A DNA stretch of 64,000 nt from Deltaproteobacteria bacterium. GTDB taxonomy: Bacteria; Myxococcota; Myxococcia; Myxococcales; SZAS-1. The notes below the pieces were generated by a model that saw only the letters and a list, made by a program, of their open reading frames with translations, was not told the DNA's origin and did no database searches. The position numbers and the translations under genes are program-made. The stretch is from NCBI GenBank assembly GCA_018266075.1, contig JAFEBB010000025.1:26613-90612 (forward strand), written 5' to 3'. Of the stretch, positions 42,380 through 56,580 are shown one piece after another (within the stretch, counting starts at the first letter, position 1; every line of letters begins with the position of its first letter).

Positions 42380-42781
42380 GTGAGGCCGGGCTCAGGAATC
42401 AAGGTCCTGGTGGTGGACGACTCGAAGGCGGCGCGCGAGCTCTTGTGCGCCACGCTCGAGGAATTGCCCGACACCGAGGTCACGGAGGCGGTGAGCGGCT
42501 TTGACGCCCTCAAGGTCCTCCCGCGCCACCAGTTCGACCTCATCATCACCGACATCAACATGCCCGACATCAACGGGCTCGAGCTCATCAACTTCGTCAA
42601 GAAGAACCCCAGCTACCGCGACGTGCCGCTCTTCATCCTCTCCAGCGAGAACAAGGAGCAGGACAAGCAGCGGGGCCTGGCCCTCGGCGCCGCCGAGTAC
42701 CTCACCAAGCCCTTCGAGCCGCCGCACCTTCTGGAGCTGGTGAAGCGTCACCTGGGACTCGGCGATCAGCAGGCGGTGTAG
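42380..42781 (+). CDS. cheY: CheY-like single-domain response regulator
   Basis: VLVVDDS, phospho-acceptor context DLIITDINMP, conserved K in YLTKPF. Confidence 0.85.
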   Translation: MRPGSGIKVLVVDDSKAARELLCATLEELPDTEVTEAVSGFDALKVLPRHQFDLIITDINMPDINGLELINFVKKNPSYRDVPLFILSSENKEQDKQRGLALGAAEYLTKPFEPPHLLELVKRHLGLGDQQAV

Positions 42782-42784
42782 GCC

Positions 42785-44872
42785 GTGGCTTCTTCGAGCA
42801 AGAAGGCGCTGGCGGAGTTCCTCTCCGAGTCGCAGGAGATCGTCGAGGCCTTTGCCGCGAACCTGCTGCGGCTCGACGTGGAGAAGGGCGAGCCCGACCC
42901 GGAGCTGGTGAACGCGATTTTTCGTGGCGCCCACTCGCTCAAGGGCCTGGCGGGCATGTTCGGCGTGGGGCGGCTCTCGGACCTCGCGCACAACGCCGAG
43001 GATCTGCTCGACGCCCTGCGCATGGGGCGTGCGCGCTTCGACCGCGCGGCCGTGGATCTGCTGCTCGAGTTCGCGAACCTGGCGACCGCGTTGATCGGCG
43101 AGGTGGCGCGCGGCGAGGAGAGCCCGGCGAGTGGGGCGTCGGTGACCCAGCTCGTTTCGCGGCTGCAGACCGCCTCGCGACCAGCGCCGCCGACGACGTC
43201 GGTCGATCCGCTCGATGCGATGGGCCTGGACGCCTCGGTGCGCGCGGTGCTCACGGAGTACGAGGAGCACCGGCTCCGCGAGAACGTGAAGAAGGGCCTG
43301 CGGCTCTTGCGCGTGCGCGCGCGCTTCGAGCTGGCCACGTTCGATCAAGGCCTCGCTGACCTGAACGGCCGATTGAAACCATCGGGTGAAGTGATCTCCA
43401 CCCTGCCATCGCCAGAGCCCGGCGAAGGCATCGCGTTCGACCTGCTCTTCGGGACCGCGAGCGCGCCGGACGACGTCCGCAAGGTGCTCACGGGTCTGCC
43501 CGTTGAGGTGAACGCCCTCGGCGGCAGCCAGGAACCAGGAACCAGGAACCAGGAACCCGTCATTGCGACGCCTCCCACCCAGGCCGCGCCGGTCTTCGCC
43601 CGCAAGCCGGAATCTCCTGCGTCGCCGATCAGCGTCGCCGACGACATCTCGCTGCGCTCGGTGAGCCAGACGGTGCGCGTGGACATCACCAAGCTCGACC
43701 GCTTGATGAACACCGTCGGCGAGCTGGTGGTGAGCAAGACGAACTTGCAGCGGCTCGCGGAAGCGCTGCGCGCCGAGCGTGATCCGGCGGCCTCGCGCGC
43801 GCTCCAGGGCGAGCTCTCGCGCGAGACGCGCACCCTGGAGCGCAAGCTCAACGAGCTCCAGGGCGGCATCCTCGAAGTGCGCATGGTTCCGCTGGAGCAG
43901 GTGTTCGACAAGCTGGCGCGGCTGGTCCGCAAGATTGCCCGCGACGCCGGCAAGGAGCTCGACTTCAAGGTCTCCGGCGGCGACGTGGAGCTCGACAAGC
44001 TCATCGTGGAAGAGCTCAGCGATCCGCTGATGCACCTCATCCGCAACGCCATCGACCACGGCATCGAGCTTCCCGACGAGCGCGAGCGGCAGGGCAAGCA
44101 ACGCCGCGGCACGGTGGCAATGAGCGCGCGGCAGCAGGGCAACCACGTGGTCATCGAGGTGTCCGACGACGGCGCGGGCATCGACGACGAGCGCGTGCGC
44201 GCCGAGGCCATCCACCGCGGGCTCACCACCGAGCGCGCGGCGGAGGAGCTCAGCCGTCGCGACCTCTTCAACTTCCTCTTCGTGCCCGGCTTCTCCACGG
44301 CGCGCAGCGTGACCGAGCTCTCCGGCCGCGGCGTGGGCATGGACGTGGTGAAGACCAACATCGCCAACCTCTCCGGCATCATCGACGTGGCCAGCGAGCG
44401 CGGCGCCGGTACGCGCTTCTCCATCACGCTCCCGGAGACGCTCGCCATCCTGCGCGCGCTGCTCGTGGACGCCGCCGGCCGCCGCTACGCCGTGCCGCTC
44501 AACAGCGTGCTGGAGATCGTGGAGGTGAAGGTCCACGAGGTGGGCACGCTCGAGGGCCGCGAGGTGATGACCTTGCGCGGCCAGAGCTTGCCGCTGGTGC
44601 GCCTGGCGCGGCTTTTCAAGCACCCGGAGCAGCCGCCGCAACACTTGTACGTCGTCGTGGTGGGCCTGGCGCAGGAGCGGCTGGGCATCGCCGTGGACGG
44701 GCTGCGCGGCCAGCAGGACATCGTCATCAAGCCGCTGGGGAAGGTGCTCGGGCCCGTGCCGGGAATCGCCGGCGCGACGGACCTCGGCAATCGCCGGACG
44801 GTGCTGGTGCTCGACGTGGGCGCCATCGTGGAAGAGGTCCTCTCGCCCACCCGCGATCGTCAGGTGGCCTGA
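42785..44872 (+). CDS. cheA: Chemotaxis-type histidine kinase CheA
   Basis: Hpt (FRGAHSLKGLAGMFG), dimerisation, HATPase (DDGAGID, GRGVGMDVV) and C-terminal CheW-like domains. No receiver domain. Confidence 0.95.
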   Translation: MASSSKKALAEFLSESQEIVEAFAANLLRLDVEKGEPDPELVNAIFRGAHSLKGLAGMFGVGRLSDLAHNAEDLLDALRMGRARFDRAAVDLLLEFANLATALIGEVARGEESPASGASVTQLVSRLQTASRPAPPTTSVDPLDAMGLDASVRAVLTEYEEHRLRENVKKGLRLLRVRARFELATFDQGLADLNGRLKPSGEVISTLPSPEPGEGIAFDLLFGTASAPDDVRKVLTGLPVEVNALGGSQEPGTRNQEPVIATPPTQAAPVFARKPESPASPISVADDISLRSVSQTVRVDITKLDRLMNTVGELVVSKTNLQRLAEALRAERDPAASRALQGELSRETRTLERKLNELQGGILEVRMVPLEQVFDKLARLVRKIARDAGKELDFKVSGGDVELDKLIVEELSDPLMHLIRNAIDHGIELPDERERQGKQRRGTVAMSARQQGNHVVIEVSDDGAGIDDERVRAEAIHRGLTTERAAEELSRRDLFNFLFVPGFSTARSVTELSGRGVGMDVVKTNIANLSGIIDVASERGAGTRFSITLPETLAILRALLVDAAGRRYAVPLNSVLEIVEVKVHEVGTLEGREVMTLRGQSLPLVRLARLFKHPEQPPQHLYVVVVGLAQERLGIAVDGLRGQQDIVIKPLGKVLGPVPGIAGATDLGNRRTVLVLDVGAIVEEVLSPTRDRQVA
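43528..43557 (+). repeat. Heptanucleotide tandem repeat (CCAGGAA)x4 + CC inside cheA
   Basis: Read directly: gcag CCAGGAA CCAGGAA CCAGGAA CCAGGAA CC cgtc. It encodes [10 protein letters not shown] in the P1-P2 linker. The unit length is not a multiple of 3. Confidence 0.95.
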
Positions 44873-44876
44873 CCAA

Positions 44877-45464
44877 ATGGACCCGACTCGTCCCACCAGC
44901 GGCGGCGCTCGACCGGTCACCAACCCGGGTGCGCGGAACACCGTCGTGGACGCGCCGGGGCTCGAGGAGTTCTTCCTCCGCTCGGACGAGCAGCCCGCAC
45001 AAGAGGCGTCGACGGGCGTGGCCATCGATCCCCTCGAGGAGCTCTTGCTCTTCGCGCTGGGCAACGAGTGGTTCGCGCTGCCGGTGCCGCTCCTGCGCGA
45101 GATCGTCATGCCGCCGCCGCTCTCGGAAGTTCCGCGCGCGCGCGCCTCGGTGCTTGGCGTGACCATGCTCCGCGGCGAGGTGGTGCCGGTGATGGACCCG
45201 CGGCAGAAGCTGCGCCTCGGGGAGCGCCTGCCCGCCGGGCACGGCACGCGCGTGGTGATCGTCGACGTCGGCGACGGGCCGCTCGGGCTCTGGGTGGACA
45301 AGGTGGTGCAGGTGCTGCGCGTGCGCGCGAGTCAGCTCGAGGAGCCGCCGCCGGGCGTGGCCGTCGAGGGCGATCCCGTGGTGCGCATTGGCCGGCAGGG
45401 CGAGCGGCTCTACGGCGTGCTGGACATGGGGCTCTTGCTCGTCGACGACGGCGAGGAGGGCTGA
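44877..45464 (+). CDS. cheW: CheW-like coupling protein
   Basis: CheW domain LLLFALGNEWFALPVPLLREIV...VLGVTMLRGEVVPVMD, with a ~45-aa N-terminal extension. Confidence 0.85.
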   Translation: MDPTRPTSGGARPVTNPGARNTVVDAPGLEEFFLRSDEQPAQEASTGVAIDPLEELLLFALGNEWFALPVPLLREIVMPPPLSEVPRARASVLGVTMLRGEVVPVMDPRQKLRLGERLPAGHGTRVVIVDVGDGPLGLWVDKVVQVLRVRASQLEEPPPGVAVEGDPVVRIGRQGERLYGVLDMGLLLVDDGEEG

Positions 45465-45465
45465 C

Positions 45466-45957
45466 GTGACCACGCCGGAGCCCTCCGCCATCGCGCCGCT
45501 CTGCGCCTTCGCCGTGGGCGAGCAGGAGTACGTCATCGACGTGATGCGCATCCGCAGCATCGTGCGCCCGCTGCCGGTGACCGCCGTGCCGCACGCGCCG
45601 CCGTTCGTGGAGGGGATGATCGAGCTGCGCGGGGCCGTGATTCCGGTGGTCGATCTGCGCAAGCGGCTGGGCGCGCCGGCCGTGCCGCCGGGGCCCAAGG
45701 CGCGTATGCTCGTGGTGCTCGTCGGGGGACGTGAGGTGGCGTTGCTGGTCGACCGGGTCCTCGAGGTGATGCGAATCCCCCGCTCGGCGGTGCGCGCGGC
45801 GCCGCCCTTGCTGGGCGGTAACGGTCCCAAGTTCTACCTGGGCGTTTGCGACGCCACCGTGCGCGGCGAGACGCGGCTGCGGCTCCTGCTCAATTTGCGC
45901 GCGCTGCTCGAGTCGGTGGATGCGGTGCCGCGGGCGCTGGTCGGAGGCGCGCCGTGA
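45466..45957 (+). CDS. cheW: CheW-like coupling protein (second)
   Basis: GTG 45466, in frame with track ORF 45388..45957, 1 nt after the cheW1 stop. LCAFAVGEQEYVIDVMRIRSIV...VEGMIELRGAVIPVVDL. Confidence 0.85.
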   Translation: MTTPEPSAIAPLCAFAVGEQEYVIDVMRIRSIVRPLPVTAVPHAPPFVEGMIELRGAVIPVVDLRKRLGAPAVPPGPKARMLVVLVGGREVALLVDRVLEVMRIPRSAVRAAPPLLGGNGPKFYLGVCDATVRGETRLRLLLNLRALLESVDAVPRALVGGAP

Positions 45958-47933
45958 CCGCCGAGCTCACCGGCGGCGAGGAGAGCCGCTACCGCGCCGT
46001 GCGCGAGCTCTCGCTCGAGTCGCCCAAGGCGTTGGAGCAGCTCCTCGAACGGCTCTCCGACGAGAGCTGGCGCGTGCGGAAAGCGGCCGTCGAGCGGCTC
46101 GCCGAGGTGAAGCCCGTGGCGCGCGCGCTGCCGCACCTGGTGGCCGCGCTGGGCAAGGGCGATGACGCGCAGGCGCGAAACGCCGCCGCCGAAGCGCTCG
46201 CGCGAATCGGTGCGCCGGCCGTTGCGGCGCTCGCGGAGCGGCTCGGCAGCGACGACGGCGACGTGCGCAAGTTCGCCGCGGACATCCTCGGCGAGATCGG
46301 CCACGCCGACGCCATCGAGCCGCTCGCGCAGGCGCTCGACGACAAAGATCGCAACGTGCGGGCCGCCGCGGCCGAGGGACTCGGGAAGATCGGCGGGCCG
46401 CGCGCAGCCGTCGCTTTGGAGCGCGCGCTGAAGGCCGACGATCACCTGCTGCGCGTGTCGGCGCTGGATGGGCTCGCGCGCATCGGCGCCGTGCCGCGGA
46501 CGGAGACGCTCGAGCCGCTCGCGCGCGATCGCTTCTTGCGTCGGCCCGTGTATCGCTTGCTCGGACGACAGACCGGCGATCGCGCGCTGGAGCTGCTCCT
46601 TCAAGGTTTGAGCGATCCGGGCCGCAGCACGCGGGAAGCGGCGCTCGCCGGCATCGCCGAGCAGACGCGCCGGGCGACGGGGTTCTTCTGGGGACGCCTG
46701 GTGCTGCTCGTGCACCGCGTGCCCGGCGGGACGGCGCCGCTGCTCAAGGCCGCGCTGGAGGCCCTGGGTCGTGAAGAGCCGGCCGCTGTCGAGGGCGCGG
46801 TCCTCATCCTGGGCGCGCTGCAGCACGCGGACGCCGCCGTCGCTGTTGCCGATCTCGGCGGCACCGAGCGCTACCGCGAGGCCGCGAGCACCGCGCTGTC
46901 GGCCATGGGCGCCGCGGCTGTGGCACCGCTCGCGGCCGGCGTCGACAAGCTCGCGCCGAGCGCGCTCTCGCTCGCGGCCGATGTGCTCGGCGAGCCGCAC
47001 GCGAACGCGCTCTCGAGTCGCGCATTGGGCGCGCTCGACACGGCGACGCCGGAGCTCGCTTCGGAGCTCTTGGATCTGCTCGGGCGGATCGGCGGACCCG
47101 CGTCGGTCGAAGGGCTGCTCGCGCGCGTGGATGATCCGCTGCTCGGCGAGAGCGCGCGACGGGCGCTGGATCAGGTGGCCGCGCGTCATGGACAGGCGCT
47201 GGTCGAGCGCGCGCGTCAGCTCTGGGCGCAGGATCGCTCGCCGGCCACGCTCTTCCTGCTCGGCGCCGTGGGCGGACCGTCGGAGCTCGACGCCGTCCGC
47301 GAGGCACTGCACGAGAGCGATCCCACGATGCGCGTGGCTGCCGTGCGCGCGCTCGCCTCGCGGGGCCAGACCGACGCTGCCGAGGCGGTGGCTGCAACAC
47401 TCACCGACGAAGCCGCAGAAGTTCGCGCAGCTTCGGTGCGTGCGCTGAACGCGCTCAAGCACGCGCAGCTGGAGACGGTGGTTCAGTCCGCGCTCGCGGA
47501 TCCGGCGCCGCGGGTGGCGCTCGCCGCGGCCGAGGTCGCAGGTGTTGCACGGCTTCGCTCGCTCGTGCCTGCGCTCACGCAACTGGTCGAGCGCGGCACC
47601 GGCTCGGCCGCGCTGGCGGCGCTCGAGGCCCTGGAGCGGCTCGACGGGCTCGAGGCCGGTCTCCTCGCGCGCGCCAGCGAGCACGCGCACGCCGAAGTGA
47701 GCCGCGCGGCGCTGGAGCTCGCCGCAGGAAGAGCAGGGGGCCTGACGCTCTTGCGCGAGCGGCTGCGGCACGCGCGCTGGGAGGTCCGTCGCGCGGCCGC
47801 GCGGGTCGCGGGACGCGTCGGCGACCGCAAGCTGGTGCCCGAGCTGCAAGCGCGGCTCGAGTCCGACGAGGATCCGCTGGTGGTCGAGGCGCTGCACCAG
47901 GCCATCGCGGCCATTCAGGCCCGGGGAGGCTGA
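45954..47933 (+). CDS. HEAT-repeat (PBS-lyase-type) protein
   Basis: GTG 45954 overlaps the cheW2 stop (GTGA). Many repeats of the type D..VR..AA.ALG.IG...A...L across ~660 aa. Confidence 0.8.
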   Translation: MTAELTGGEESRYRAVRELSLESPKALEQLLERLSDESWRVRKAAVERLAEVKPVARALPHLVAALGKGDDAQARNAAAEALARIGAPAVAALAERLGSDDGDVRKFAADILGEIGHADAIEPLAQALDDKDRNVRAAAAEGLGKIGGPRAAVALERALKADDHLLRVSALDGLARIGAVPRTETLEPLARDRFLRRPVYRLLGRQTGDRALELLLQGLSDPGRSTREAALAGIAEQTRRATGFFWGRLVLLVHRVPGGTAPLLKAALEALGREEPAAVEGAVLILGALQHADAAVAVADLGGTERYREAASTALSAMGAAAVAPLAAGVDKLAPSALSLAADVLGEPHANALSSRALGALDTATPELASELLDLLGRIGGPASVEGLLARVDDPLLGESARRALDQVAARHGQALVERARQLWAQDRSPATLFLLGAVGGPSELDAVREALHESDPTMRVAAVRALASRGQTDAAEAVAATLTDEAAEVRAASVRALNALKHAQLETVVQSALADPAPRVALAAAEVAGVARLRSLVPALTQLVERGTGSAALAALEALERLDGLEAGLLARASEHAHAEVSRAALELAAGRAGGLTLLRERLRHARWEVRRAAARVAGRVGDRKLVPELQARLESDEDPLVVEALHQAIAAIQARGG

Positions 47934-47936
47934 GCC

Positions 47937-48788
47937 GTGGCCCTGGGGCCCGCTCCGGTGGAGATGACGCCGGAGGAGTTTCGCCTCCTGAGCGAGCAGC
48001 TCTACGCCTACTCGGGCCTGCTCTTCCGCGAGGAGATGAAGTACCTGCTCGAGCGGCGCCTTCAAGTGCGCTTGCAGGAGCTCGAGCTCGGCGACTTCGG
48101 CGCGTACTACCGCTTCCTTCGCTACGACGCCGGCGGCCGCGACGAGCTGGCCATCGCCACCGAGCTCCTGCTCACCCACGAGACGTACTTCTTCCGCGAG
48201 CCGGAGCAGCTGCGCTCGTTCGCGTCGGAGGTGTTGCCGCAGCTCGCGCAGGAGAAGGCGACCAGCAAGCGGCTGCGCATCTGGAGCGCGGGCTGCGCCA
48301 CCGGCGAGGAGCCGTACACGCTGGCGATGATGCTGCTCGACTCGGGGCTGTTCGAGGGCTGGGACGCGACCGTCTACGGATCGGACTTGTCGCGGCGCGT
48401 GCTCACCCAGGCCCGGCGCGGCGTGTACGGAGAGAGCGCCATGCGCGCCATGCCGCCCGACGCGCTCGCGCGCCACTTCGACACCACCGGGCCGGGGCAG
48501 CACCGCGTGCGCGACGAGGTCCGTCGGCGGGTGACGTTTGGGCAGGTGAACCTGCTCGATGATCAGAACCTGGCGCTGGTGGGGCGCATGGACGCCATCT
48601 TCTGCCGCAACGTGATGATCTACTTCGACCTGCCCGCGCGGCGGCGCGTGCTGCGCCACTTCTACGACAAGCTCGCCGAGGGCGGATATCTTCTGCTCGG
48701 GCACTCGGAGAACCTCATCAACGTGACCGCCGACTTCGAGCTGGTGCACCTGCGCGGCGACCTCGTCTACCGCAGGCCGAGGAGCTGA
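47937..48788 (+). CDS. cheR: Chemotaxis protein methyltransferase CheR
   Basis: THETYFFRE and IWSAGCATGEEPYTLAM (SAM-binding) motifs. Confidence 0.9.
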   Translation: MALGPAPVEMTPEEFRLLSEQLYAYSGLLFREEMKYLLERRLQVRLQELELGDFGAYYRFLRYDAGGRDELAIATELLLTHETYFFREPEQLRSFASEVLPQLAQEKATSKRLRIWSAGCATGEEPYTLAMMLLDSGLFEGWDATVYGSDLSRRVLTQARRGVYGESAMRAMPPDALARHFDTTGPGQHRVRDEVRRRVTFGQVNLLDDQNLALVGRMDAIFCRNVMIYFDLPARRRVLRHFYDKLAEGGYLLLGHSENLINVTADFELVHLRGDLVYRRPRS

Positions 48789-48794
48789 CCCGCG

Positions 48795-49838
48795 ATGGCG
48801 CTCCGCAAGCTCCGCGTACTGGTGATCGACGACTCGGCGCTCAACCGGCGCCTGCTGTCCGATCTCTTGTCCGACGACCCGGATGTGGAGGTCATCGCCA
48901 CCGCGGCCGACGGCGAAGAGGGCCTCAAGCTCGCGCTCTCCGAGCGGCCCGACGCGGTGATCCTCGATTTGCAGATGCCGCGCGTGGACGGCTTCACCTT
49001 CCTGCGGCTCCTGATGGCCAAGCGGCCCACGCCGGTGGTCGTGTTCTCGAGCTACGCGCGCAAGGCCGACGCGTTCCGCGCGCTGGAGCTCGGCGCCATC
49101 GACTTCGTGGCGCGACCGGGACGGCCGCTTTCCCCGGGTGATCCGGTGGTCGCGGAGCTGATTCAGAAGCTCAAGGGGGTGCGGCTGCTCGGTCCGGGCG
49201 CGCTTCGAGCGGGTCGAACCACGACGGGAGAGTTGCAGATGGCGCGACGCCCCGCGCGCATCGCCGTCATCGGCGCGTCGACGGGCGGACCTCCGGCCAT
49301 CACCCGCTTGCTGAGCCGGTTGCCCGCGGATCTGCCGATGGCCGTGCTCATCGCGCAGCACATGCCGGAGAAGTTCACCAAGGCGTTCGCCGAGCGGCTC
49401 AATCGCTCCAGCTCCTTCGAGGTCGACGAGGCCGGCGATGGCGAAGAGATTCAGGCCGGTCGCGCGCTGATTTCACCCGGTGGCGGCGACCTGGTGATCA
49501 GCCGTCGCGGCGAGCGGCTCTGCGTGCGGGTGCTCACCGGCGAGTCGAAGCGCAAGTATCGCCCGAGCGTCGACGCGCTCTTCGAGAGCGCCGCCGCCGT
49601 GGGGCACGAGCTCGGCGTGGGCATCGCCGGCGCGGTGCTCACCGGCATGGGCGCCGATGGGAGAGAGGGCATCATCGCGCTGCAGAAGGCCGGCGCGCTC
49701 ACCCTCGCCGAGAGCCCGGAGACGGCTGTCATCTGGGGCATGCCCAAGGAGGCCGTCGACACCGGTCGCGTGTCGCGCGTGCTCCCGCTCGACGCGCTCA
49801 TCGAGGCGCTCGTGCGATTTGGACGCGAAGGACGCTGA
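48795..49838 (+). CDS. cheB: Chemotaxis response regulator protein-glutamate methylesterase CheB
   Basis: Receiver domain (VLVIDDS...ILDLQMP) plus an esterase domain (IGASTGGP...). Confidence 0.9.
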   Translation: MALRKLRVLVIDDSALNRRLLSDLLSDDPDVEVIATAADGEEGLKLALSERPDAVILDLQMPRVDGFTFLRLLMAKRPTPVVVFSSYARKADAFRALELGAIDFVARPGRPLSPGDPVVAELIQKLKGVRLLGPGALRAGRTTTGELQMARRPARIAVIGASTGGPPAITRLLSRLPADLPMAVLIAQHMPEKFTKAFAERLNRSSSFEVDEAGDGEEIQAGRALISPGGGDLVISRRGERLCVRVLTGESKRKYRPSVDALFESAAAVGHELGVGIAGAVLTGMGADGREGIIALQKAGALTLAESPETAVIWGMPKEAVDTGRVSRVLPLDALIEALVRFGREGR

Positions 49839-49901: not shown

Positions 49902-51317
49902 CTACTGGCAGTAGCCGCTGGATCTGCAGGTGCTGCCCGTGCCGCAACCCCAGCCCGGATCGGTGCAGGGCGGCTGACAGATGCCGTTCGTCGCCAGGCC
50001 GCCGTCGACGTAGTCGTAGGGCCAGCAGAGGTACCCGAGGTGGCAGCTCGAGCGGCCGCCGCCCGGGCTGTTGCACGCCTGCTGGCAGAGCGCGAAGGTG
50101 CCGAACGACGCGCACGTGCCCGTGGGGCCGCACGCCCCCGCAGGCGCGAAGTCGCAGTCCGCGAGGCAGTAGCCGTTGGGCCAGCCGTCGCCGCCGCCGT
50201 CGGGGAAGAAGGGCGTGGCGCAGAACGCGTCGGCGTCGGTGCACTGCGCGTCGCTGGTGCAGGCCGTGCCCGGGACGCCCGAGCCCAGCGGCGTGGGATC
50301 GCAGTAGCCCTGCGCGTTGCAGGTGTAGCCCGTCGCGCACGGATAGGTGGCGCAGTTGGTGTCGCAGATGCCGGTGGAGGCCACGCCGCCCGTGGAGTCG
50401 TACCAGAAGTCGCAGACGTAGCCCGAGCGGCACGTCGACTGCCCGCCGCGAATCGACGGACACGACTGCATGCAGAACTGCCCCGTGGTGTAGCTCACGC
50501 ACTCCCCGCCCAGGCAAATGGAGGCGTTGGCGCTGCAATCACCCGTGCAGTAGCCGCCAGGCCAAGCGCTGCTGAGCTGGCAGTAGCCGTCGCTGCCGCA
50601 GGGCGCATTCGAGGTGCACGCGGCGCCGCTCTCCACGCCGATGACGCCCGTTGTGCCCGTGCTGCCGGTGGTCGTGCTGCTGCTGGTGGTGCCCGTGGTG
50701 CCGGTGGTGCTCGTTGCGGTGCTGGTCGACGTCGAAGTCGTGGTCGATGTCGACGTCCCGGTGGTTGTGGTGCTGCTGCTCGAGGAGGTGGTGCTGCTCG
50801 AGCTCGACGAAGAGGTGCTCGAGGTGGCGCTGCTCGAGCTCGACGTGGTCGACGACGACAACCCGCCGGTGGTGCTGGTGCTCGCGCTGCTGCCCGTGGT
50901 CGACGTCGACGACGCGCCGGTCCCGGTGGTGCTCGCGGCGCTGCTCGAGGACGAGGAGCGGCCGGTGGTGCCGGTCGTGGATGACGCGCTCGAGCCCGAA
51001 GTGGATGCCGAGCTCGAGCTCGAGCCGTGGGTGCCCTCGATGGTGCCGCCGCTCGAGCCGCCGGACGCGCCCGAGCCAGACCCGCCGCCGATGGCGATGC
51101 CCGTGCTGGCGCCACTCGCCGACGCGGTCCCCACCGGCGGACAGCGCTTCTCCTCGCCGGGCGACTGGATGCAGTAGCCGCTCCTGCACTGCGCGGGCAG
51201 GGCGCAGTCGTTGTCCGACTCGCAGCGGATGCATTTGAACGTGGGGGAGCTTCCGCAGCCCGCAAGGGCCACGAGCAGCAGCGCGCTCAAACCCCCGAGG
51301 ATTGACGGCAACCGCAC
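49902..51317 (-). CDS. Cys-rich lipoprotein with very long Ser/Thr linker
   Basis: MRLPSILGGLSALLLVALAGC lipobox, an N-terminal 6-Cys knot (CIRCESDNDCALPAQCRSGYC...C), ~160 aa of S/T/G, then a ~240-aa C-terminal Cys-rich region. Confidence 0.8.
   Translation of the reverse strand: MRLPSILGGLSALLLVALAGCGSSPTFKCIRCESDNDCALPAQCRSGYCIQSPGEEKRCPPVGTASASGASTGIAIGGGSGSGASGGSSGGTIEGTHGSSSSSASTSGSSASSTTGTTGRSSSSSSAASTTGTGASSTSTTGSSASTSTTGGLSSSTTSSSSSATSSTSSSSSSSTTSSSSSTTTTGTSTSTTTSTSTSTATSTTGTTGTTSSSTTTGSTGTTGVIGVESGAACTSNAPCGSDGYCQLSSAWPGGYCTGDCSANASICLGGECVSYTTGQFCMQSCPSIRGGQSTCRSGYVCDFWYDSTGGVASTGICDTNCATYPCATGYTCNAQGYCDPTPLGSGVPGTACTSDAQCTDADAFCATPFFPDGGGDGWPNGYCLADCDFAPAGACGPTGTCASFGTFALCQQACNSPGGGRSSCHLGYLCWPYDYVDGGLATNGICQPPCTDPGWGCGTGSTCRSSGYCQ
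50646..51131 (-). repeat. Ser/Thr/Gly low-complexity coding tract
   Basis: Encodes ...SSSSSASTSGSSASSTTGTTGRSSSSSSAASTTGTGASSTSTTGSSASTSTTGG...TSTSTSTATSTTGTTGTTSSSTTTGSTGTTG. Confidence 0.85.
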
Positions 51318-51374
51318 GACACGCCTCCACGATCGACTTCCCAGTCTATGTCGAAAGTGTGTGGGCGTGTCGCG

Positions 51375-52937
51375 TCAGTGCGCGGGCGTGGCGAAAAGCT
51401 TCCGCACGCTGGTGAAGGCCTCGGCCACCTCGCCCGCCTTCTGGTAGCGCGCCGCCGGGTCCTTCATGAGCAGCTTGAGGATGATGGCCTCGAGCTGCGC
51501 CGGCAGGCGCGGGTTGAGCGAGCGCGGCGGCGGCGGGTCTTCCTTGAGCTGCTTCTTGAGCAGCTTGAGCATGTCCTTGTCGCCGAAGGGCACGCGCCCG
51601 GTGCACATGCGGTACGCGGTCACGCCGATGGCGTAGAGGTCGGTCGCCGGCGAGACCTTGCTCGAGTCGACGATCTGCTCCGGCGCCATGAACTCCGGCG
51701 TGCCCACGCCCATGCCCGGCGAGGTGAGCTTGGCCGCCGCGGAGAACTTGGCGATGCCGAAGTCCATGATCTTCACCACCCGCTGCTCGGTGATGAAGAG
51801 GTTCTGCGGCTTGATGTCGCGGTGAATCACGCCCACCGCGTGCGCTGCCTCCAGCCCGCGACAGGCCTGCACGAGCAGGTCGAGGCTCTCCGACACCGCG
51901 ATGGGCTGCGCCAGGCGCTCCTTCAAGTCCTGGCCCACGAGCAGCTCCATGGTCAGGTACTTGTGCTCCGCGTAGGTGCCGATGTCGAAGAGCCGCACCA
52001 CGTTGGGGTGCGCGATCGATCGCGAGGAGAGCAGCTCTTGCTTGAAGCGCGCGAGCAGCGTCGCGTCGTCCATGCGATCGAAGACCTTGACGGCGATCTG
52101 CTGGCCGATCTCGCGATCTGTCGCGCGAAAGACGCGGCCCATGCCGCCGCGGCCAATCAGCGGCCCCAGCTCGTAGCGCTCGGCGATGACCGCGCCCTCT
52201 TGAAAGCCCGGCTCCAGCTTCGCCGGGTTTACGCTCGACGGCCGGGCCTGTGCCGCTTGCAGGTCGCGCGTGTTGCGCCGCGCGGGCGTGCCGGTCGACG
52301 AGGTCATGCGCTGCGGCGGCCGCGTGGTCTGCTCCTCGAGCTCGGGATCGTCGGGTGGCTCGGCCTTGGGTGGCGCCGTGAACCTGATGGGCGTGGCCAC
52401 CTTGGGCGGCGTGGCCATCCTCGGCGGCGCGGGCGTGCTCGACCGGGTGGGCGCGCGCGGCTGGATTTTGGTGGGCTCGGGGGCGTCGAAGAGCGGCTCG
52501 AGCTGCAGCATGGTGGGCGGCACGTCGCCCGTCTGCGTGTTGGGCCGGCCGATCTGCGTCTTCTCATCGGACAGGTCGGACGAGGCGGAGCGGAGCGTCT
52601 TCTCCGGCGCGCCCGGCCCAAAGCGATCGGAGCGCTCGAGCTGGGTCTCGATCTCGTCGGCCGCCTTGTTGAACCCGCCTTGCCGCAGGAGCGAGGCCGC
52701 GTGCTGGGCGCGCGCGCGCAGGTGCGGATCGCGCAGGGTGGCGAGCTCGTTGGTGCGCACGCCGAGCGTGTTCAGCAGGAGCTCCGCGCCCTCGATGAAG
52801 CGGCGCGCCTGGCCCAGGGCGCGGGCAGCCTCGTCGTGGGCCTCGGCCTGGACGAACTCACGCACGGCGGCGTCGAGGTCGCCCTTCTTCAAGAGATTGC
52901 GAGCGTTCGCAAGGATCTTGGGGTCGGCGGTGGCCAT
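51375..52937 (-). CDS. Hanks-type Ser/Thr protein kinase with C-terminal kinase domain
   Basis: Track ORF 51375..53027 trimmed to ATG 52937. GRGGMGRVFRA, AVKVF, HRDIKPQN, DFGIAK and GTPEFMAPE all present. Helical N-terminal region and a Pro-rich linker. Confidence 0.9.
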   Translation of the reverse strand: MATADPKILANARNLLKKGDLDAAVREFVQAEAHDEAARALGQARRFIEGAELLLNTLGVRTNELATLRDPHLRARAQHAASLLRQGGFNKAADEIETQLERSDRFGPGAPEKTLRSASSDLSDEKTQIGRPNTQTGDVPPTMLQLEPLFDAPEPTKIQPRAPTRSSTPAPPRMATPPKVATPIRFTAPPKAEPPDDPELEEQTTRPPQRMTSSTGTPARRNTRDLQAAQARPSSVNPAKLEPGFQEGAVIAERYELGPLIGRGGMGRVFRATDREIGQQIAVKVFDRMDDATLLARFKQELLSSRSIAHPNVVRLFDIGTYAEHKYLTMELLVGQDLKERLAQPIAVSESLDLLVQACRGLEAAHAVGVIHRDIKPQNLFITEQRVVKIMDFGIAKFSAAAKLTSPGMGVGTPEFMAPEQIVDSSKVSPATDLYAIGVTAYRMCTGRVPFGDKDMLKLLKKQLKEDPPPPRSLNPRLPAQLEAIILKLLMKDPAARYQKAGEVAEAFTSVRKLFATPAH

Positions 52938-53068
52938 GGTGTCGCCAGAAGCGACAGACGCAGCGTAGCCCACCTCCCGGGGTGTTCGCGCGTCTTGCCG
53001 GGCCATTGGGGCTCCGCTAGCGTGCACCCCGGCCGGAGCGTTTCACTCCGCTTTCCGGGCCTCCGCGA

Positions 53069-53452
53069 ATGAAGTCCCACAAGGTCCGCGCGCTGGTGGT
53101 CGACGACAGCCCCATGCTCCGCAAGAGCGTGGTGGCCGCCTTGCGCCGCATCGACGCCCTTCACTGCGTGGAGGCCGGCGACGGCGGCGAGGGCTTGAAG
53201 CGCCTGTCGAAGGAGCACTTCGACATCCTCCTCACCGACATCAACATGCCGGTGATGGACGGGCTCAAGCTCATCGCGGCCGTCCGGCAGCCGCCCCTCG
53301 GGCTGAAGATCCCCATCGTGGTCATCACCACCGAGTCGGACTCGAAGGACCGGGACCGGGCGCTCGCGCTGGGCGCCACCCGCTACATGGTGAAGCCGGT
53401 GCAGGCGCCCGAGGTCATCGCAGCCGTGAAGGAGCTGCTGGACCTGCCGTAA
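53069..53452 (+). CDS. CheY-like single-domain response regulator
   Basis: ALVVDDS, DILLTDINMP, YMVKPV. Paralogous to 42380..42781. Confidence 0.9.
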   Translation: MKSHKVRALVVDDSPMLRKSVVAALRRIDALHCVEAGDGGEGLKRLSKEHFDILLTDINMPVMDGLKLIAAVRQPPLGLKIPIVVITTESDSKDRDRALALGATRYMVKPVQAPEVIAAVKELLDLP

Positions 53453-53512: not shown

Positions 53513-55243
53513 ATGCGGGGAGACATGTCCGAGCCCAAGCTGCGACTGGGGGAGCAGCTCCTGGCCGCCGGCCTCATCACCGATGAGGGCCTGCGCGAGG
53601 CCCTCGCCGAGCAGAAGGTGGAGGGCGGCTACCTCGCCGACCGGCTGGTGGAGCTCGGGCTGGTGGACGAACGCAACCTCCTGCGCTTCCTCGCCGAGCT
53701 CACCGGCGCCAAGTACATCACCGTGGACACGCTGGCGAAGGCGCAGCTCCCGCCCGAGGCGCTCGAGAAGGTGCCCGCGCGGCACGCGGAGCTGCTGTGC
53801 GTGCTGCCGCTCGCCTTCGACGCCCGGGACAGCGTGCTCACCCTGGCCGTGCCCGAATTGGAGCAGGGGCTCTTCGAGCAGGTTCGGCTCGCGGCGGCGG
53901 TGGCGAAGGTTCAGCCCATCGTGGCCCTGCGGGCGAGCATCCGGGCGGGCATCCGGCGCTTCTACTACGCGGACCACTACGCGTTTGCGACCCTCGATCA
54001 CGGCACCGCCAAGCCCGTCGTTCGGCCGGCGGTGCGCGAGAGCATCATCGCCCGCTCGAGCGCGCCCAAGCCGATGCCGCAGCCGAAGGCGGCCGAGGAC
54101 ACCGAGCGGCTGCGCAACGAGCTCAACCGCTGGAAGGCGGTGGCCGAGCTCTCCCGCGTGCTGGCGCGCGAGCGGAACGTGAAGGCGCTCTTGCACCGCG
54201 CGCTGGCGTTCGCGTTCGACCAGATCCCCGCGGACGACGGCGTGGCGCTGCTCTGGGACCCCAAGGCCAAGCAGCTCGTGCCGCGCGGCGTGCGCGTGCG
54301 CTCGGGCGAGGTGGCCGAGGTGCCCGTGTCGGAGACGCTGCTCAAGGAGATCATCTCCGAGGGCGGCGCCATCACCACCGACGCCACCGTCGACGAGCGC
54401 TTCTCGTCCTCGGAGAGCATCATGGCCTCGGCGCTGCGCTCGGCCCTGGGCGTGGCCTTGAAGGTGAGCGATCAGCTCTCGGGCGCGCTGGTGTTCGGCA
54501 CCCGCGGCGAGAACGCGGCGGTGTTCAAGCCCGAGGACCTGGCGCTCGCCGAAGAGCTGGCCAAGGAGCTCGCGCTGGCCATCGAGCGCATCCAGACCTT
54601 CCGCCGCGAGGAGACCGAGAACCTCCAGCGCGACCGCTACTCGAAGCACTTTCCGCCGGCCACGGCCGACCAGATCAACCAGGGCGCGCTCAAGCTCCCC
54701 GAGGGCGGCGAGCGCTACCGGGCCACGGTGCTGTCGGCGCGGGTCATCGGCTCCTCGGCCGAGCTCGGCGACGACGCCACGCCCAGCTCCATGGTGGGCA
54801 CGCTCTCGCTTCACGCCGAGCAGATGTCGGACGTGGTCTTTGCCCACGGCGGCATGGTGCTCGACAACCCCGGCGCGCACACCGTGGCGCTCTTCGGCGT
54901 GCCCCGGGAGCGTGGCGACGAGCTCGACCGCGCGGTGATCACCGCTCGAGAGCTGCTGGAGCGGGTGCAGTTCGCCAACGAGCTCCGCATCGCCGAGGGG
55001 CGGCCGAGCCTGGAGATCTCCATCGGGATCGCGCGGGGCGACGTGATCGTCGGCGTGGTGGGCGAGCGGATGCGAAGCCAGTTCACGGCGCTGGGCCACG
55101 CGCTCTCCCGCGCGCAGCAGCTCGTCTCCAGCGCGCACGCGGGCGAGTTGGTGCTCGACGACGAGGTGGCGCAGGCCATCGAGGGCCGCGCGGGCGCCCT
55201 CGAGCCCGGCCCCATTTCCGGCAGCCAGAGGGTGAGGAGATAG
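53513..55243 (+). CDS. MshEN (T2SSE_N) - GAF - degenerate class III cyclase-homology-domain protein
   Basis: RLGEQLLAAGLITDEGLREALAEQ matches the MshEN 24-residue motif. Central GAF domain. The C-terminal CHD-like domain has its catalytic positions substituted. Alternative start ATG 53525. Confidence 0.85.
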   Translation: MRGDMSEPKLRLGEQLLAAGLITDEGLREALAEQKVEGGYLADRLVELGLVDERNLLRFLAELTGAKYITVDTLAKAQLPPEALEKVPARHAELLCVLPLAFDARDSVLTLAVPELEQGLFEQVRLAAAVAKVQPIVALRASIRAGIRRFYYADHYAFATLDHGTAKPVVRPAVRESIIARSSAPKPMPQPKAAEDTERLRNELNRWKAVAELSRVLARERNVKALLHRALAFAFDQIPADDGVALLWDPKAKQLVPRGVRVRSGEVAEVPVSETLLKEIISEGGAITTDATVDERFSSSESIMASALRSALGVALKVSDQLSGALVFGTRGENAAVFKPEDLALAEELAKELALAIERIQTFRREETENLQRDRYSKHFPPATADQINQGALKLPEGGERYRATVLSARVIGSSAELGDDATPSSMVGTLSLHAEQMSDVVFAHGGMVLDNPGAHTVALFGVPRERGDELDRAVITARELLERVQFANELRIAEGRPSLEISIGIARGDVIVGVVGERMRSQFTALGHALSRAQQLVSSAHAGELVLDDEVAQAIEGRAGALEPGPISGSQRVRR

Positions 55244-55246
55244 CCA

Positions 55247-55966
55247 ATGAGCGAGCTCGACCCGGGACTCAGCGGTGGGCCGTATGTCCCTGCGACGCAG
55301 ACCAGCCGCTTGGCGGTGTTCTCGTTCTTCTCGTCGCTGCTCTGCTTGCCTGGCATCTCGGGGCTGCTGGGCGTGCTGCTGGGGGCGCTGGCGCTGCGGC
55401 AGATCAACAGCACCAACACCATCACCGGCTCCAACCTGGCGCTCACCGGCATCCTCGGTGGGCTCATGAACCTCGTGGTGTGGGGCGGCGTGGCCCAGCA
55501 CTACGCCGAGGTGCAGAAGCACATCGACGAGCCGACGTCGGCGTTCATGGCCGCGTACCTCAAGTCGGAGGCCGATGGCGAGGCCGCTGCCGCGCCAGGC
55601 CTGCGCCCGCTCATGCGCCACGGCGAGGGCGAGCTCATCCGCAAGGCGCTCCTGGAGCGGTTCGGCGGCTTCAAGGAGCTCGGGCCGCGCAGCAAGTTCG
55701 ACTACAAGTTCGACATCAAGGGCGAGCACATCTCGACCACCTACGCGATCGTCTTCAACAACGGCGCGCCCTGCACCGGCCGCTTCGAGTACGCCACCAA
55801 CGAGAAGGAGCTCCGGGTGGTGGGCTTCGAGTTCACCTCGCCGGTGCTTCGCGACCTCACCATCAACAACCAGAACGGCCTGCACGGCAAGTCCACGCCG
55901 GACGTGGGCGACTTCTCGGAGCCGTCGAGCAACGATGCCGCGTCGCGGCTGAAGTCGTTCAAGTAG
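55247..55966 (+). CDS. DUF4190-like membrane protein with soluble C-terminal domain
   Basis: Two TM helices (LAVFSFFSSLLCLPGISGLLGVLLGALAL; ALTGILGGLMNLVVWGGV). Starts 3 nt after the upstream stop. Confidence 0.7.
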   Translation: MSELDPGLSGGPYVPATQTSRLAVFSFFSSLLCLPGISGLLGVLLGALALRQINSTNTITGSNLALTGILGGLMNLVVWGGVAQHYAEVQKHIDEPTSAFMAAYLKSEADGEAAAAPGLRPLMRHGEGELIRKALLERFGGFKELGPRSKFDYKFDIKGEHISTTYAIVFNNGAPCTGRFEYATNEKELRVVGFEFTSPVLRDLTINNQNGLHGKSTPDVGDFSEPSSNDAASRLKSFK

Positions 55967-56022: not shown

Positions 56023-56580
56023 GTGACCGCCAGCCAGCCCCAGGATCCCAGCGCCTTGCCTGCCGCGCCGCTGCGCCTCGTGCCCGCCGGGCCCGAGCAC
56101 GCTGGCCTCTGGCTGCGCTGGCGTGACGAGCGCTTGGCCCAGCGCTTCAACCCGCTGGACACGATGACGCTCTCCGACCTGCGCCGCCGCCTCGAGGGCT
56201 GGGACGGCCGCCTCACCGATCGCCGCCGCGACGAGTACCGCTGGCTCATCCTCCACGGCGAGGAGCCGGTGGGGACGGCCGCGCTGATGAAGCCGTCGTG
56301 GCGCATGGGCTACGGCGAGATCGGCTACCTCATCAGCGAGCCCTTTCAGGGCCGCGGGCTGGGCACGCGGGCGGTGCGACTCCTCGTGACCCACATCTTC
56401 CAGGAGACGGCGCTGCGAAGGCTTCAGGCGCTGGTGAGCGTGGAGAACATCGCCTCGCAGCGGCTGCTGGAGCGGCTCGGCTTCACCTACGAGGGCACGC
56501 TGCGGCAGTACTTCGTCATCCAGGGCAAGCCGGTGGACGAGAAGCTGTACGCCATGCTCCGCGGCGATTGGCGTCAGTAG
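56023..56580 (+). CDS. GNAT-family N-acetyltransferase (RimJ/RimL-like)
   Basis: GYLISEPFQGRGLGTRAVRLLVTHIF...NIASQRLLERLGF acetyl-CoA-binding core. Confidence 0.85.
   Translation: MTASQPQDPSALPAAPLRLVPAGPEHAGLWLRWRDERLAQRFNPLDTMTLSDLRRRLEGWDGRLTDRRRDEYRWLILHGEEPVGTAALMKPSWRMGYGEIGYLISEPFQGRGLGTRAVRLLVTHIFQETALRRLQALVSVENIASQRLLERLGFTYEGTLRQYFVIQGKPVDEKLYAMLRGDWRQ

Follow-up and report, generated by a model that had tools for sequence, protein, structure and literature searches.

A MshEN-GAF protein with a degenerate class III cyclase-homology domain, encoded near a Che cluster in Myxococcales and probably a non-catalytic adaptor

The window analysed here, a 64-kb stretch of a Myxococcales contig, carries a chemosensory gene cluster on the forward strand (42380..49838) encoding CheY, CheA, CheW, a HEAT-repeat protein, CheR and CheB, as assigned by Pfam and by the open reading frame of CheY, while no MCP was recognised within the cluster. 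A Ser/Thr protein kinase gene (Pfam, synteny) lies on the reverse strand at 51375..53027, divergent from the gene of a single-domain CheY-like receiver (53069..53452, forward strand). According to Pfam and its sequence, the receiver possesses the full set of phospho-acceptor and switch residues (D12, D13, D57, T87, Y106 and K109), and it is 38% identical to the CheY heading the Che operon. Next to the receiver is the gene that is the subject of this study, which encodes an MshEN domain, a GAF domain and a class III cyclase-homology domain (CHD) in one protein. It is followed on the same strand by genes for a DUF4190 membrane protein (55247..55966), with two transmembrane helices and an alpha+beta C-terminal domain of about 150 residues, and for a GNAT acetyltransferase (56023..56580; Pfam, synteny). 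The AF2 model of the DUF4190 protein gave NTF2/cystatin-like Foldseek matches that were too weak for a fold assignment (E >= 0.02).

The open reading frame of the MshEN-GAF-CHD gene runs from 53513 to 55243 on the forward strand, as do all features described for it below, and its translation comprises 576 residues. However, the true start is probably the ATG at 53525 (coding sequence 53525..55243, 572 residues), because homologs begin with MAEPKL and a Shine-Dalgarno-like GGGGAGA is present at 53516-53522; residue numbers are nevertheless counted from the ATG at 53513 throughout. The three domains, which a first-pass annotation had recognised from the letters of the DNA, each scored above the curated cut-off. 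Exactly this architecture was found in about 19 representative clusters, the majority of which are catalytically intact, and one relative, P0043, joins a Pkinase domain to two MshEN domains, GAF and CHD, a fusion that connects the kinase encoded nearby with this family. A contig scan of public genomes returned two loci, both from Myxococcales MAGs and both encoding relatives of about 41% identity. Members of the catalytically degenerate clade to which the window protein belongs are annotated by automated pipelines as "class 3 adenylate cyclase".

The first-pass annotation also regarded the domain combination as uncharacterised. As far as experiments are concerned this holds, for a literature search for an experimentally characterised MshEN-cyclase protein found nothing specific; the fusions as such, however, had already been listed by Wang et al. 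2016 (Nat Commun 7:12481), for instance MXAN_7396 of M. xanthus, and were presented there as evidence of cross-talk between c-di-GMP and cAMP. MXAN_7396 and the window protein both come from Myxococcales and both have an N-terminal c-di-GMP-type MshEN module fused to a class III cyclase domain. MXAN_7396 is a (MshEN_N)2-REC-ACyc protein, in which MshEN_N is doubled, the receiver is internal and GAF is lacking, whereas the window protein has one complete MshEN, a GAF domain, a receiver encoded as a separate gene and a dead cyclase domain.

The MshEN domain was identified by the NCBIfam model NF053729 (c-di-GMP_motif) at residues 11-62 (51.3 bits, cut-off 38, E = 7e-14), by Pfam MshEN (PF05157) at residues 75-154 (25.8 bits, cut-off 23.1), and by a PDB sequence search in which the region matched the N-domains of PilF, PilB and MshE. 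Motif I (RLGEQLLAAGLITDEGLREALAEQ, 53543..53614, residues 11-34) fits the consensus RLGxx(L/V/I)(L/V/I)xxG(L/V/I)(L/V/I/F)xxxxLxxxLxxQ at 11/11 key positions, just as the first reading of the sequence had it, a point of likeness to VcMshE and the PilF GSPII domains. It is identical in the five closest relatives of the window protein, and within the nine-member clade it shows only conservative swaps (I/V, D/E, G/A, R/K), including K for the first R in P0009. The second, looser copy that had been proposed was found exactly five residues further on (YLADRLVELGLVDERNLLRFLAEL, 53630..53701, residues 40-63), and it keeps eight of the 11 key positions, departing from the consensus by R1 to Y, G3 to A and Q24 to L. 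[quoted passage not shown] Behind the motifs lies a C-terminal, T2SSE_N1-like alpha/beta subdomain (53702..53992, residues 64-160), defined by PF05157, the PDB matches and dN/dS; with a dN/dS of 0.08-0.16 it ranks with the most strongly constrained regions of the protein.

Whether this domain binds c-di-GMP, as predicted by the first-pass annotation, is a separate question. The intact motif I speaks for it, but binding is not established, because a complete site needs two motifs and motif II deviates at three positions. The backbone of Gly3 in motif II contacts guanine, and substitutions in motif II of VcMshE lowered the affinity 72-fold (G40I) and 12-fold (Q61A) (Wang et al. 2016, Supplementary Table 1); in the window protein the Gly is an Ala and the Gln a Leu. 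Among solved domains, PilF GSPII-A (45 bits) is the nearest to the window MshEN; it is a proven non-binder of c-di-GMP that has the same Gly-to-Ala change in motif II, and the window MshEN is most like it in sequence, in this change and in model score. In a calibration of NF053729 on four reference domains, the binders scored 84.4, 63.1 and 60.2 and the non-binder GSPII-A 53.5, with the window MshEN at 55.7, and the relaxed search pattern of Wang et al. is violated by the window MshEN at three positions. On these grounds we consider it unlikely that the domain is a bona fide high-affinity (nM to sub-µM) receptor like VcMshE with c-di-GMP as the main input of the protein, even though motif I is kept across the clade, the NF053729 cut-off is passed, the 53-residue site has its full set of six hydrophobic Leu positions and its two turn Gly, the dN/dS of MshEN is the lowest within the protein, and PilF GSPII-B, a 6 nM binder, accepts a hydrophobic residue at position 1 of motif II and even gains from it. 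Judging from sequence, we give somewhat less than an even chance that the window MshEN still binds c-di-GMP; its affinity, if any, is probably weakened, and it may be a docking domain instead of a receptor. More generally, neither a perfect first MshEN motif nor an NF053729 pass predicts c-di-GMP binding, because a proven non-binder, GSPII-A, scores the same as the window MshEN.

The GAF domain (54173..54589, residues 221-359), which had been placed after MshEN, is supported by three Pfam profiles above their cut-offs (GAF_3, 39.4 bits; GAF, 34.7 bits; GAF_2, 34.0 bits) and by the secondary structure of the AF2 model, where residues 223-331 form a GAF fold of a beta-sheet with flanking helices. 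No NKFDE-type cNMP motif was seen in it by eye, and phmmer found no match for the GAF segment in the PDB. According to the AF2 model and the family alignment, GAF and CHD are joined by a long helical connector (54599..54712, residues 363-400, part of helix 340-389), which includes an RDRY..HFPP segment directly ahead of the CHD, and the best Foldseek match, 6fht, is a sensor-coiled-coil-cyclase. The tandem of GAF, helical connector and CHD is shared with the GAF-CHD relatives found here and presumably with the GAF-regulated class III adenylate cyclases of the cyanobacterial CyaB1/CyaB2 type; the relatives keep the canonical catalytic hexad DKDTNR (132/160 sampled, HMM alignment), whereas the window protein is degenerate and has the extra MshEN.

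The CHD (54713..55180) retains the features of a class III cyclase in profile and fold, in line with the first reading. Guanylate_cyc (PF00211) matched residues 412-556 with 30.1 bits against a cut-off of 21.9, compared with 96.9 bits in the intact relative L001, phmmer matched the CHD to 2w01 at 1e-14, and Foldseek assigned the AF2 model (pLDDT 73.7) to the class III cyclase fold, at TM 0.70-0.77 when normalised to CyaC, Cya2, RhGC and Rv1625c. The catalytic positions were read from five pairwise HMMER alignments to solved cyclases, a 27-sequence family alignment and an HMM alignment of 160 relatives. In all three kinds of alignment the two metal-binding Asp are replaced, the first by R410 (54740-54742) and the second by A455 (54875-54877). 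The substrate Lys has become D451 (54863-54865), and in the transition-state helix alpha-4 the motif GDxVNxAxR reads GHALSRAQQ, as first noted, with S532 (55106-55108) for the Asn and Q536 (55118-55120) for the Arg. The specificity position (T/D) is T525 (55085-55087); Thr is canonical in DKDTNR as well, so of the Lys/Thr pair the window protein itself loses only the Lys, while the position varies among T, M, S and G in the degenerate clade.

That the window protein is not a cyclase enzyme, as had been suggested, is therefore strongly supported by the sequence, and because its catalytic residues are lost it would make no cyclic nucleotide. Some pseudoenzymes called from sequence were later found to be active through migrated residues, and D451, at the former Lys position, lies near the pocket. 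An active nucleotide cyclase using relocated, non-canonical residues is nevertheless extremely improbable here and was rejected, because the catalytic positions (both metal ligands and both transition-state residues) are changed and the first metal site is occupied by an Arg, which would repel Mg2+; nor does the clade alignment show an evident compensating pair of conserved acidic residues. A literature search on bacterial pseudo-cyclases found nothing specific.

The catalytic loss is common to nine relatives with identities of 65-100%, in which the replacements are fixed. The relatives at E <= 1e-30 numbered 4,997, many GAF-CHD proteins among them. In the tree, the degenerate clade is monophyletic (support 100/100) and nested in another 100/100 clade of mostly DKDTNR proteins; its nearest outgroups are P0031, P0033, P0034 and P0036, and zinc-ribbon-FHA-GAF-CHD proteins form the sister group. 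Its stem is long (1.46 substitutions per site, compared with a median tip of 0.49), and the branches inside the clade that follow are short.

Such a long stem, together with the loss of catalysis and a dN/dS of the helical connector that reaches about 1 in some pairs, could be taken as the mark of a decaying relic without function. We attach next to no weight to this reading, and it was rejected because at least nine lineages, with identities down to 65%, have an unbroken frame, dN/dS is below 1 for every domain and synteny is kept, along with translational coupling; the short branches within the clade also argue against it. By NG86 estimates, which are rough at 70% G+C, dN/dS was 0.32-0.52 for the CHD, near the 0.28-0.46 of the GAF domain, and mostly 0.08-0.16 for MshEN. 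The dead CHD is under purifying selection, with weaker constraint than MshEN.

Synteny was compared between the window and six loci of relatives (L001, L003, L004, L005, L006 and L007). The receiver gene is always immediately upstream of the MshEN-GAF-CHD gene, and the order receiver, MshEN-GAF-CHD, DUF4190 was found in 7/7 loci. The DUF4190 gene, which is kept beside dead and intact cyclase forms alike, begins 3 nt past the stop codon in the window and overlaps it by 4 nt in relatives, which indicates translational coupling. In six of the seven loci, namely the window and five of the six others, intact relatives included, the triad follows an MCP-less CheA-CheW-HEAT-CheR-CheB cluster, either directly after HEAT-CheR-CheB (L004, L005 and L001) or with the kinase gene inserted (window, L003 and L006). 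L003 has the same Che gene order with two CheW. The kinase is absent from that position in L004, L005 and L001. In the degenerate clade (window, L003, L004 and L006) the gene after DUF4190 is that of the GNAT, which is missing from this place in the intact-type L001 and L005. The adjoining CheY-like regulator and the nearby Che cluster had both been pointed out before, and their link to the protein is stronger than first noted because the synteny is conserved. The association of the triad with Che genes is frequent and not obligatory, since L007 carries the triad without an adjoining Che cluster.

The same loci bear on another possible role of the dead CHD, as an inhibitory partner that forms heterodimers with a canonical class III cyclase from another part of the genome. 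Class III cyclase domains form head-to-tail dimers whose active sites are built from both subunits, and a dead CHD, having neither metal-binding residues nor Asn/Arg to contribute, would silence both composite sites. This would also account for a CHD that is conserved though catalysis is lost, and L007 does have, about 3 kb upstream of its triad, the gene of a canonical membrane cyclase with the DKDTNR residues. However, the 64-kb window and the other five loci contain no second cyclase-homology domain, and what is conserved beside the gene is a receiver and DUF4190 rather than a cyclase, so that we regard this role as quite improbable.

The Che cluster of the window can be compared with known chemosensory systems. 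M. xanthus Che8 (MXAN_4751-4759), the function of which has not been identified, comprises two CheY, two CheW, a non-hybrid CheA, CheR and CheB, with no MCP in operon tables, and it matches the window cluster; the likeness is one of gene content only, because M. xanthus lists no MshEN protein beside CheY8a. A literature search on MXAN_4750-4755 found nothing specific. M. xanthus Che7 works with the HEAT-repeat protein Cpc7, and a HEAT-repeat protein is also encoded in the window cluster. In Pil-Chp of Pseudomonas aeruginosa, which we take to be a Che-type pathway that controls the class III cyclase CyaB, and not a motor, via the CheY-like PilG, the output logic from Che to a class III adenylate cyclase is the one proposed here for the intact relatives of the window gene. 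However, the module has no gene-level homology to Pil-Chp and the window cyclase is dead, and CyaB is, we presume, encoded outside the Chp cluster and lacks MshEN and GAF. The retention of a second-messenger enzyme domain as a non-catalytic module also recalls degenerate GGDEF/EAL proteins of the FimX, LapD and PelD type (PMC8844925). These have a different fold and the dead domain itself binds the messenger, whereas in the window protein the dead domain is of the cAMP/cGMP cyclase family and a different domain holds the putative c-di-GMP site.

Taken together, the findings suggest a non-catalytic adaptor that evolved from an adenylate cyclase linked to a Che system. In Myxococcota, three genes, for a CheY-like receiver, an MshEN-GAF-cyclase and DUF4190, form a conserved module that usually closes an MCP-less, Che8-like cluster. 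Most lineages have a canonical cyclase (D-K-D-T-N-R, ATP-type), and there the Che signal, through the phosphorylated receiver and together with GAF/MshEN inputs, would plausibly be turned into cAMP. In the lineage of the window, the catalytic residues were lost on one long branch, after which the whole protein, dead domain included, stayed under purifying selection with its receiver and DUF4190 partners retained. The present protein is predicted to be cytoplasmic and probably dimeric, composed of MshEN, a disordered linker, GAF, the long helix and the CHD. Without a cyclic nucleotide output, it would most likely act as an adaptor or switch in which a conformational change of the GAF-helix-CHD dimer is relayed by protein contacts, with the receiver, DUF4190 and the neighbouring Ser/Thr kinase as candidate partners. 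Dimerisation, partners, direction of signalling and ligand are inferred here, whereas the order of domains, the lost residues, the nesting in the tree, the selection and the synteny come from the data. We put the probability that the protein is a positional ortholog of a Che-module adenylate cyclase that lost catalysis and was kept as a non-catalytic adaptor or switch at roughly 0.7. A more specific version, in which the intact module is the CheY- and c-di-GMP-gated cyclase of a Che8-type MCP-less pathway and the window protein a cyclase-dead scaffold that reads c-di-GMP and CheY~P and contacts DUF4190, GNAT or the kinase, is decidedly doubtful; if true, it would show that in nature the synthase of a second messenger became a receptor at one orthologous position.

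Many chemosensory pathways of myxobacteria serve "alternative cellular functions", and few of their outputs are known. The conserved module of CheY, MshEN-GAF-adenylate cyclase and DUF4190 offers cAMP as a concrete candidate output of such a cluster and is a possible meeting point of c-di-GMP and cAMP signalling. The clade of the window protein provides an evolutionary contrast, in which genomic position and partners are the same, catalysis is abolished and the protein is kept.

The window carries, on the plus strand at 53513..55243, an open reading frame whose translation joins an MshEN domain, a GAF domain and a class III cyclase-homology domain (CHD). Its true start is probably the second ATG (53525) rather than the first (53513), because homologs begin MAEPKL..., equivalent to M5, and an SD-like GGGGAGA (53516-53522) lies 3-9 nt 5' of the second ATG; residue numbers here count from 53513. 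The architecture read in the first-pass annotation was recovered by Pfam and NCBIfam, with the 53-residue c-di-GMP motif model NF053729 at residues 11-62 (51.3 bits, cut-off 38), MshEN at 75-154 (25.8 bits, cut-off 23.1), GAF at 221-359 and Guanylate_cyc at 412-556 (30.1 bits, cut-off 21.9). An AlphaFold2 model (11 homologs as input, pLDDT 73.7) orders the protein as a helical N-terminal bundle with an alpha/beta subdomain, a disordered linker (173-191), the GAF domain, a long helix (340-389) and a C-terminal alpha/beta domain. The latter matches solved class III cyclases at TM 0.70-0.77, normalised to the targets, and the best overall structural match is the sensor-coiled-coil-cyclase 6fht.

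The catalytic positions were assigned from three independent alignments, namely five pairwise HMMER alignments with solved cyclases, a 27-sequence family alignment and an HMM alignment of 160 relatives, which concur on the identity of the residues. The two metal-binding Asp residues are replaced by R410 (54740-54742) and A455, the substrate-defining Lys by D451 (54863-54865), and the transition-state Asn and Arg by S532 and Q536; the remaining substrate-defining (specificity) position, canonically Thr or Asp, reads T525. In the predicted secondary structure, these positions sit as in the family, at the end of beta-1, in the beta-2/beta-3 hairpin and in helix 529-540. The substitutions first noticed at the metal and Asn/Arg positions are therefore borne out, and the suggestion that the protein is not an enzyme agrees with the loss of the metal, Lys and Asn/Arg residues, by which the cyclase domain is predicted to be catalytically dead. 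Class III active sites span a dimer, in which one subunit brings the metal and substrate residues and its partner the Asn/Arg pair. Since both residue sets are lost, the protein would be unable to supply part of any active site, even in a heterodimer. Among the 160 relatives, the canonical hexad DKDTNR (two metal Asp, Lys, Thr, Asn, Arg) is present in 132, and its complete loss is confined to the window's clade. R410 and D451 are the two invariant replacements in this clade and both are charge reversals (Asp to Arg, Lys to Asp); they possibly form a salt bridge filling the former active-site pocket. As well, three members of the clade (P0006, P0007 and P0008) are annotated by JGI as 'class 3 adenylate cyclase', which is probably a functional mis-annotation.

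Proteins of the same architecture formed 12 clusters in a word-indexed search, while an exhaustive profile search, with representatives taken at 50% identity, gave about 19 clusters aligning end to end with the window protein. GAF-cyclases are plentiful in the latter search, and those with other N-termini number in the thousands (4,997 hits at E <= 1e-30). Nine sequences, 65-100% identical to the window protein, share the degenerate pattern R-D-A/S-x-x-Q/L/V, and relatives at about 40% identity have ADIRGF, KFxGD and GDAVNxAxR. A maximum-likelihood tree was built from the GAF-CHD region, with FHA-GAF-CHD proteins as the root. In it the degenerate clade is monophyletic (support 100/100), its stem measures 1.46 substitutions per site where the median tip branch measures 0.49, and it sits inside a larger clade, also supported at 100/100, whose members are mostly canonical; the dead form was derived from canonical cyclases. 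The nearest outgroup (P0031, P0033, P0034 and P0036) has an intact hexad and, as read by eye, a zinc-ribbon-like Cys motif and an FHA-like region N-terminal to GAF-CHD. Partial or full CHD degeneration arose independently in four further MshEN-bearing lineages (P0020, P0026, P0043 and P0047), giving 5 of the roughly 19 MshEN-bearing representative clusters, while it is rare in the other ~125 GAF-CHD representatives sampled. Within the degenerate clade, pairwise NG86 dN/dS, which is rough at 70% G+C, was about 0.08-0.16 for MshEN in most pairs, 0.28-0.46 for GAF, 0.32-0.52 for the dead CHD and 0.34-1.0 for the helical connector. According to these values, the dead CHD is kept under constraint by purifying selection rather than decaying.

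The gene is directly preceded by a single-domain CheY-like receiver (REC, 53069..53452, plus strand), and a gap of 3 nt separates it from the next gene, which encodes a DUF4190 protein (55247..55966, plus strand). The receiver is phosphorylatable, having D12, D13, D57, T87, Y106 and K109, and is 38% identical to the CheY heading the upstream Che operon (42380..49838, plus strand; CheY, CheA, CheW, HEAT-repeat protein, CheR and CheB by Pfam). For the DUF4190 protein, which is 30-57% identical across dead- and intact-type loci, the prediction is two TM helices followed by an alpha+beta domain at the C-terminus. The nearby regulator and Che cluster pointed out earlier are thus confirmed, and the linkage is also kept in relatives, as seen by comparing the window with six other loci. 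L003 and L006 (78% and 83% identity to the window protein; dead) read CheB, minus-strand Ser/Thr kinase, REC, MshEN-GAF-CHD, DUF4190, GNAT, and L004 (65%; dead) runs from CheR and CheB through the same three genes to GNAT with no genes between. L005 (42%; hexad DKDTSR) and L001 (41%; intact, cyclase score 96.9 bits) read HEAT, CheR, CheB and the triad. In L007 (83%; dead), the triad stands in a different neighbourhood, not adjoining a Che cluster. In L003, L004, L006 and L007, the end of the MshEN-GAF-CHD gene, with its stop codon, shares 4 nt with the start of DUF4190. From this arrangement, the core unit is the triad of REC, MshEN-GAF-CHD and DUF4190, usually joined to the 3' end of this Che cluster, with dead and intact forms as positional orthologs of each other.

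A GNAT gene follows DUF4190 in all four complete dead-clade loci (window 56023..56580, L003 10426-10959, L004 5245-5784, L006 5878-6405) and in neither intact-type locus (L001, L005), and its gain may go with the loss of catalysis in this small sample of 4 versus 2. In all loci reaching that far (window and L003, with partial copies in L001 and L005), cheW and cheR flank a HEAT-repeat protein (window 45846..47933; ~660-695 aa). Between cheB and REC, the window has minus-strand genes for a Cys-rich S/T-linker lipoprotein and a Ser/Thr kinase (49902..53027), L003 and L006 have the kinase alone, and L004, L005 and L001 have neither; because the intervening genes differ by locus and are absent from the last three, the Che cluster and triad were formerly contiguous and later split by insertions. 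Moreover, P0043 (1118 aa) fuses a Ser/Thr kinase (Pkinase) to two MshEN, GAF and a degenerate CHD (hexad QENGKR), which independently supports a putative functional link to the kinase gene found beside REC in three loci (window, L003 and L006).

In the intact lineages, the module would turn Che signalling into cAMP, while in the window's lineage the protein would signal without catalysis, as a dimeric adaptor or switch with partners that sense its state. It is possible that the protein acts as a dominant negative on another cyclase, and L007 is the sole locus in support of this, encoding a multi-TM class III cyclase with canonical DKDTNR (1511-2845) about 3 kb upstream of the triad. However, a further cyclase-homology domain was looked for in the 64-kb window and the other loci and was found nowhere outside L007.

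As its strong conservation shows, the MshEN part has an important role, which could be ligand binding or docking, the latter being a function served by the N-domains of secretion ATPases. For the predicted c-di-GMP binding, motif I (residues 11-34) fits at 11 of 11 key positions, and the clade as a whole conserves it. The second, looser copy noted in the first pass is present at residues 40-63 after the correct 5-residue spacer, but has 8 of 11 (R1 to Y, G3 to A, Q24 to L), a count that no motif II in the MshEN-GAF-CHD family exceeds; all hydrophobic positions and the turn Gly are retained. In Vibrio cholerae MshE, the backbone at Gly3 of motif II hydrogen-bonds guanine, and by ITC G40I and Q61A weakened binding 72-fold and 12-fold, respectively, while G11L abolished it (Wang et al. 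2016). The first position of motif II is typically aromatic in this family, and a hydrophobic residue is tolerated there, because Thermus thermophilus PilF GSPII-B, with Leu, binds c-di-GMP at 6 nM. The closest solved sequence is PilF GSPII-A (45 bits), a non-binder. In calibration, NF053729 scored 84.4 bits for V. cholerae MshE, 63.1 for GSPII-B and 60.2 for GSPII-C (all binders), 55.7 for the window domain and 53.5 for GSPII-A, so passing its cut-off does not separate binders from non-binders. Taken together, physiologically meaningful c-di-GMP binding is conceivable from these motifs, though we lean slightly against it.

MshEN fusions to adenylate/guanylate cyclase, REC, GAF, CheA, CheX and Ser/Thr kinase domains, such as the MshEN-cyclase MXAN_7396 ((MshEN_N)2-REC-ACyc), were already reported (Wang et al. 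2016), so the domain combination, which the first-pass annotation did not know to be characterised, is of a kind already on record; our literature search nonetheless found no paper characterising any MshEN-cyclase, nor one on the Che-linked triad. By gene content alone, the window Che cluster equals M. xanthus Che8 (two CheY, two CheW, non-hybrid CheA, CheR, CheB and no MCP; Moine et al. 2014, table), which has no function assigned in the literature and, unlike the window cluster, no MshEN protein listed beside CheY8a. The HEAT-repeat protein recalls Cpc7 of M. xanthus Che7. GAF-cyclases are abundant, and c-di-GMP biology offers familiar cases of dead enzyme domains that serve as signalling modules. 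In Pseudomonas, Pil-Chp acts on CyaB, and the Che-to-cAMP route proposed for the intact relatives would follow the same logic. Modest follow-up is merited mainly by the family-level hypothesis that an adenylate cyclase may be the output of a Che8-like pathway, and by the natural contrast at a single genomic position, where some lineages have the active form and others the dead one.
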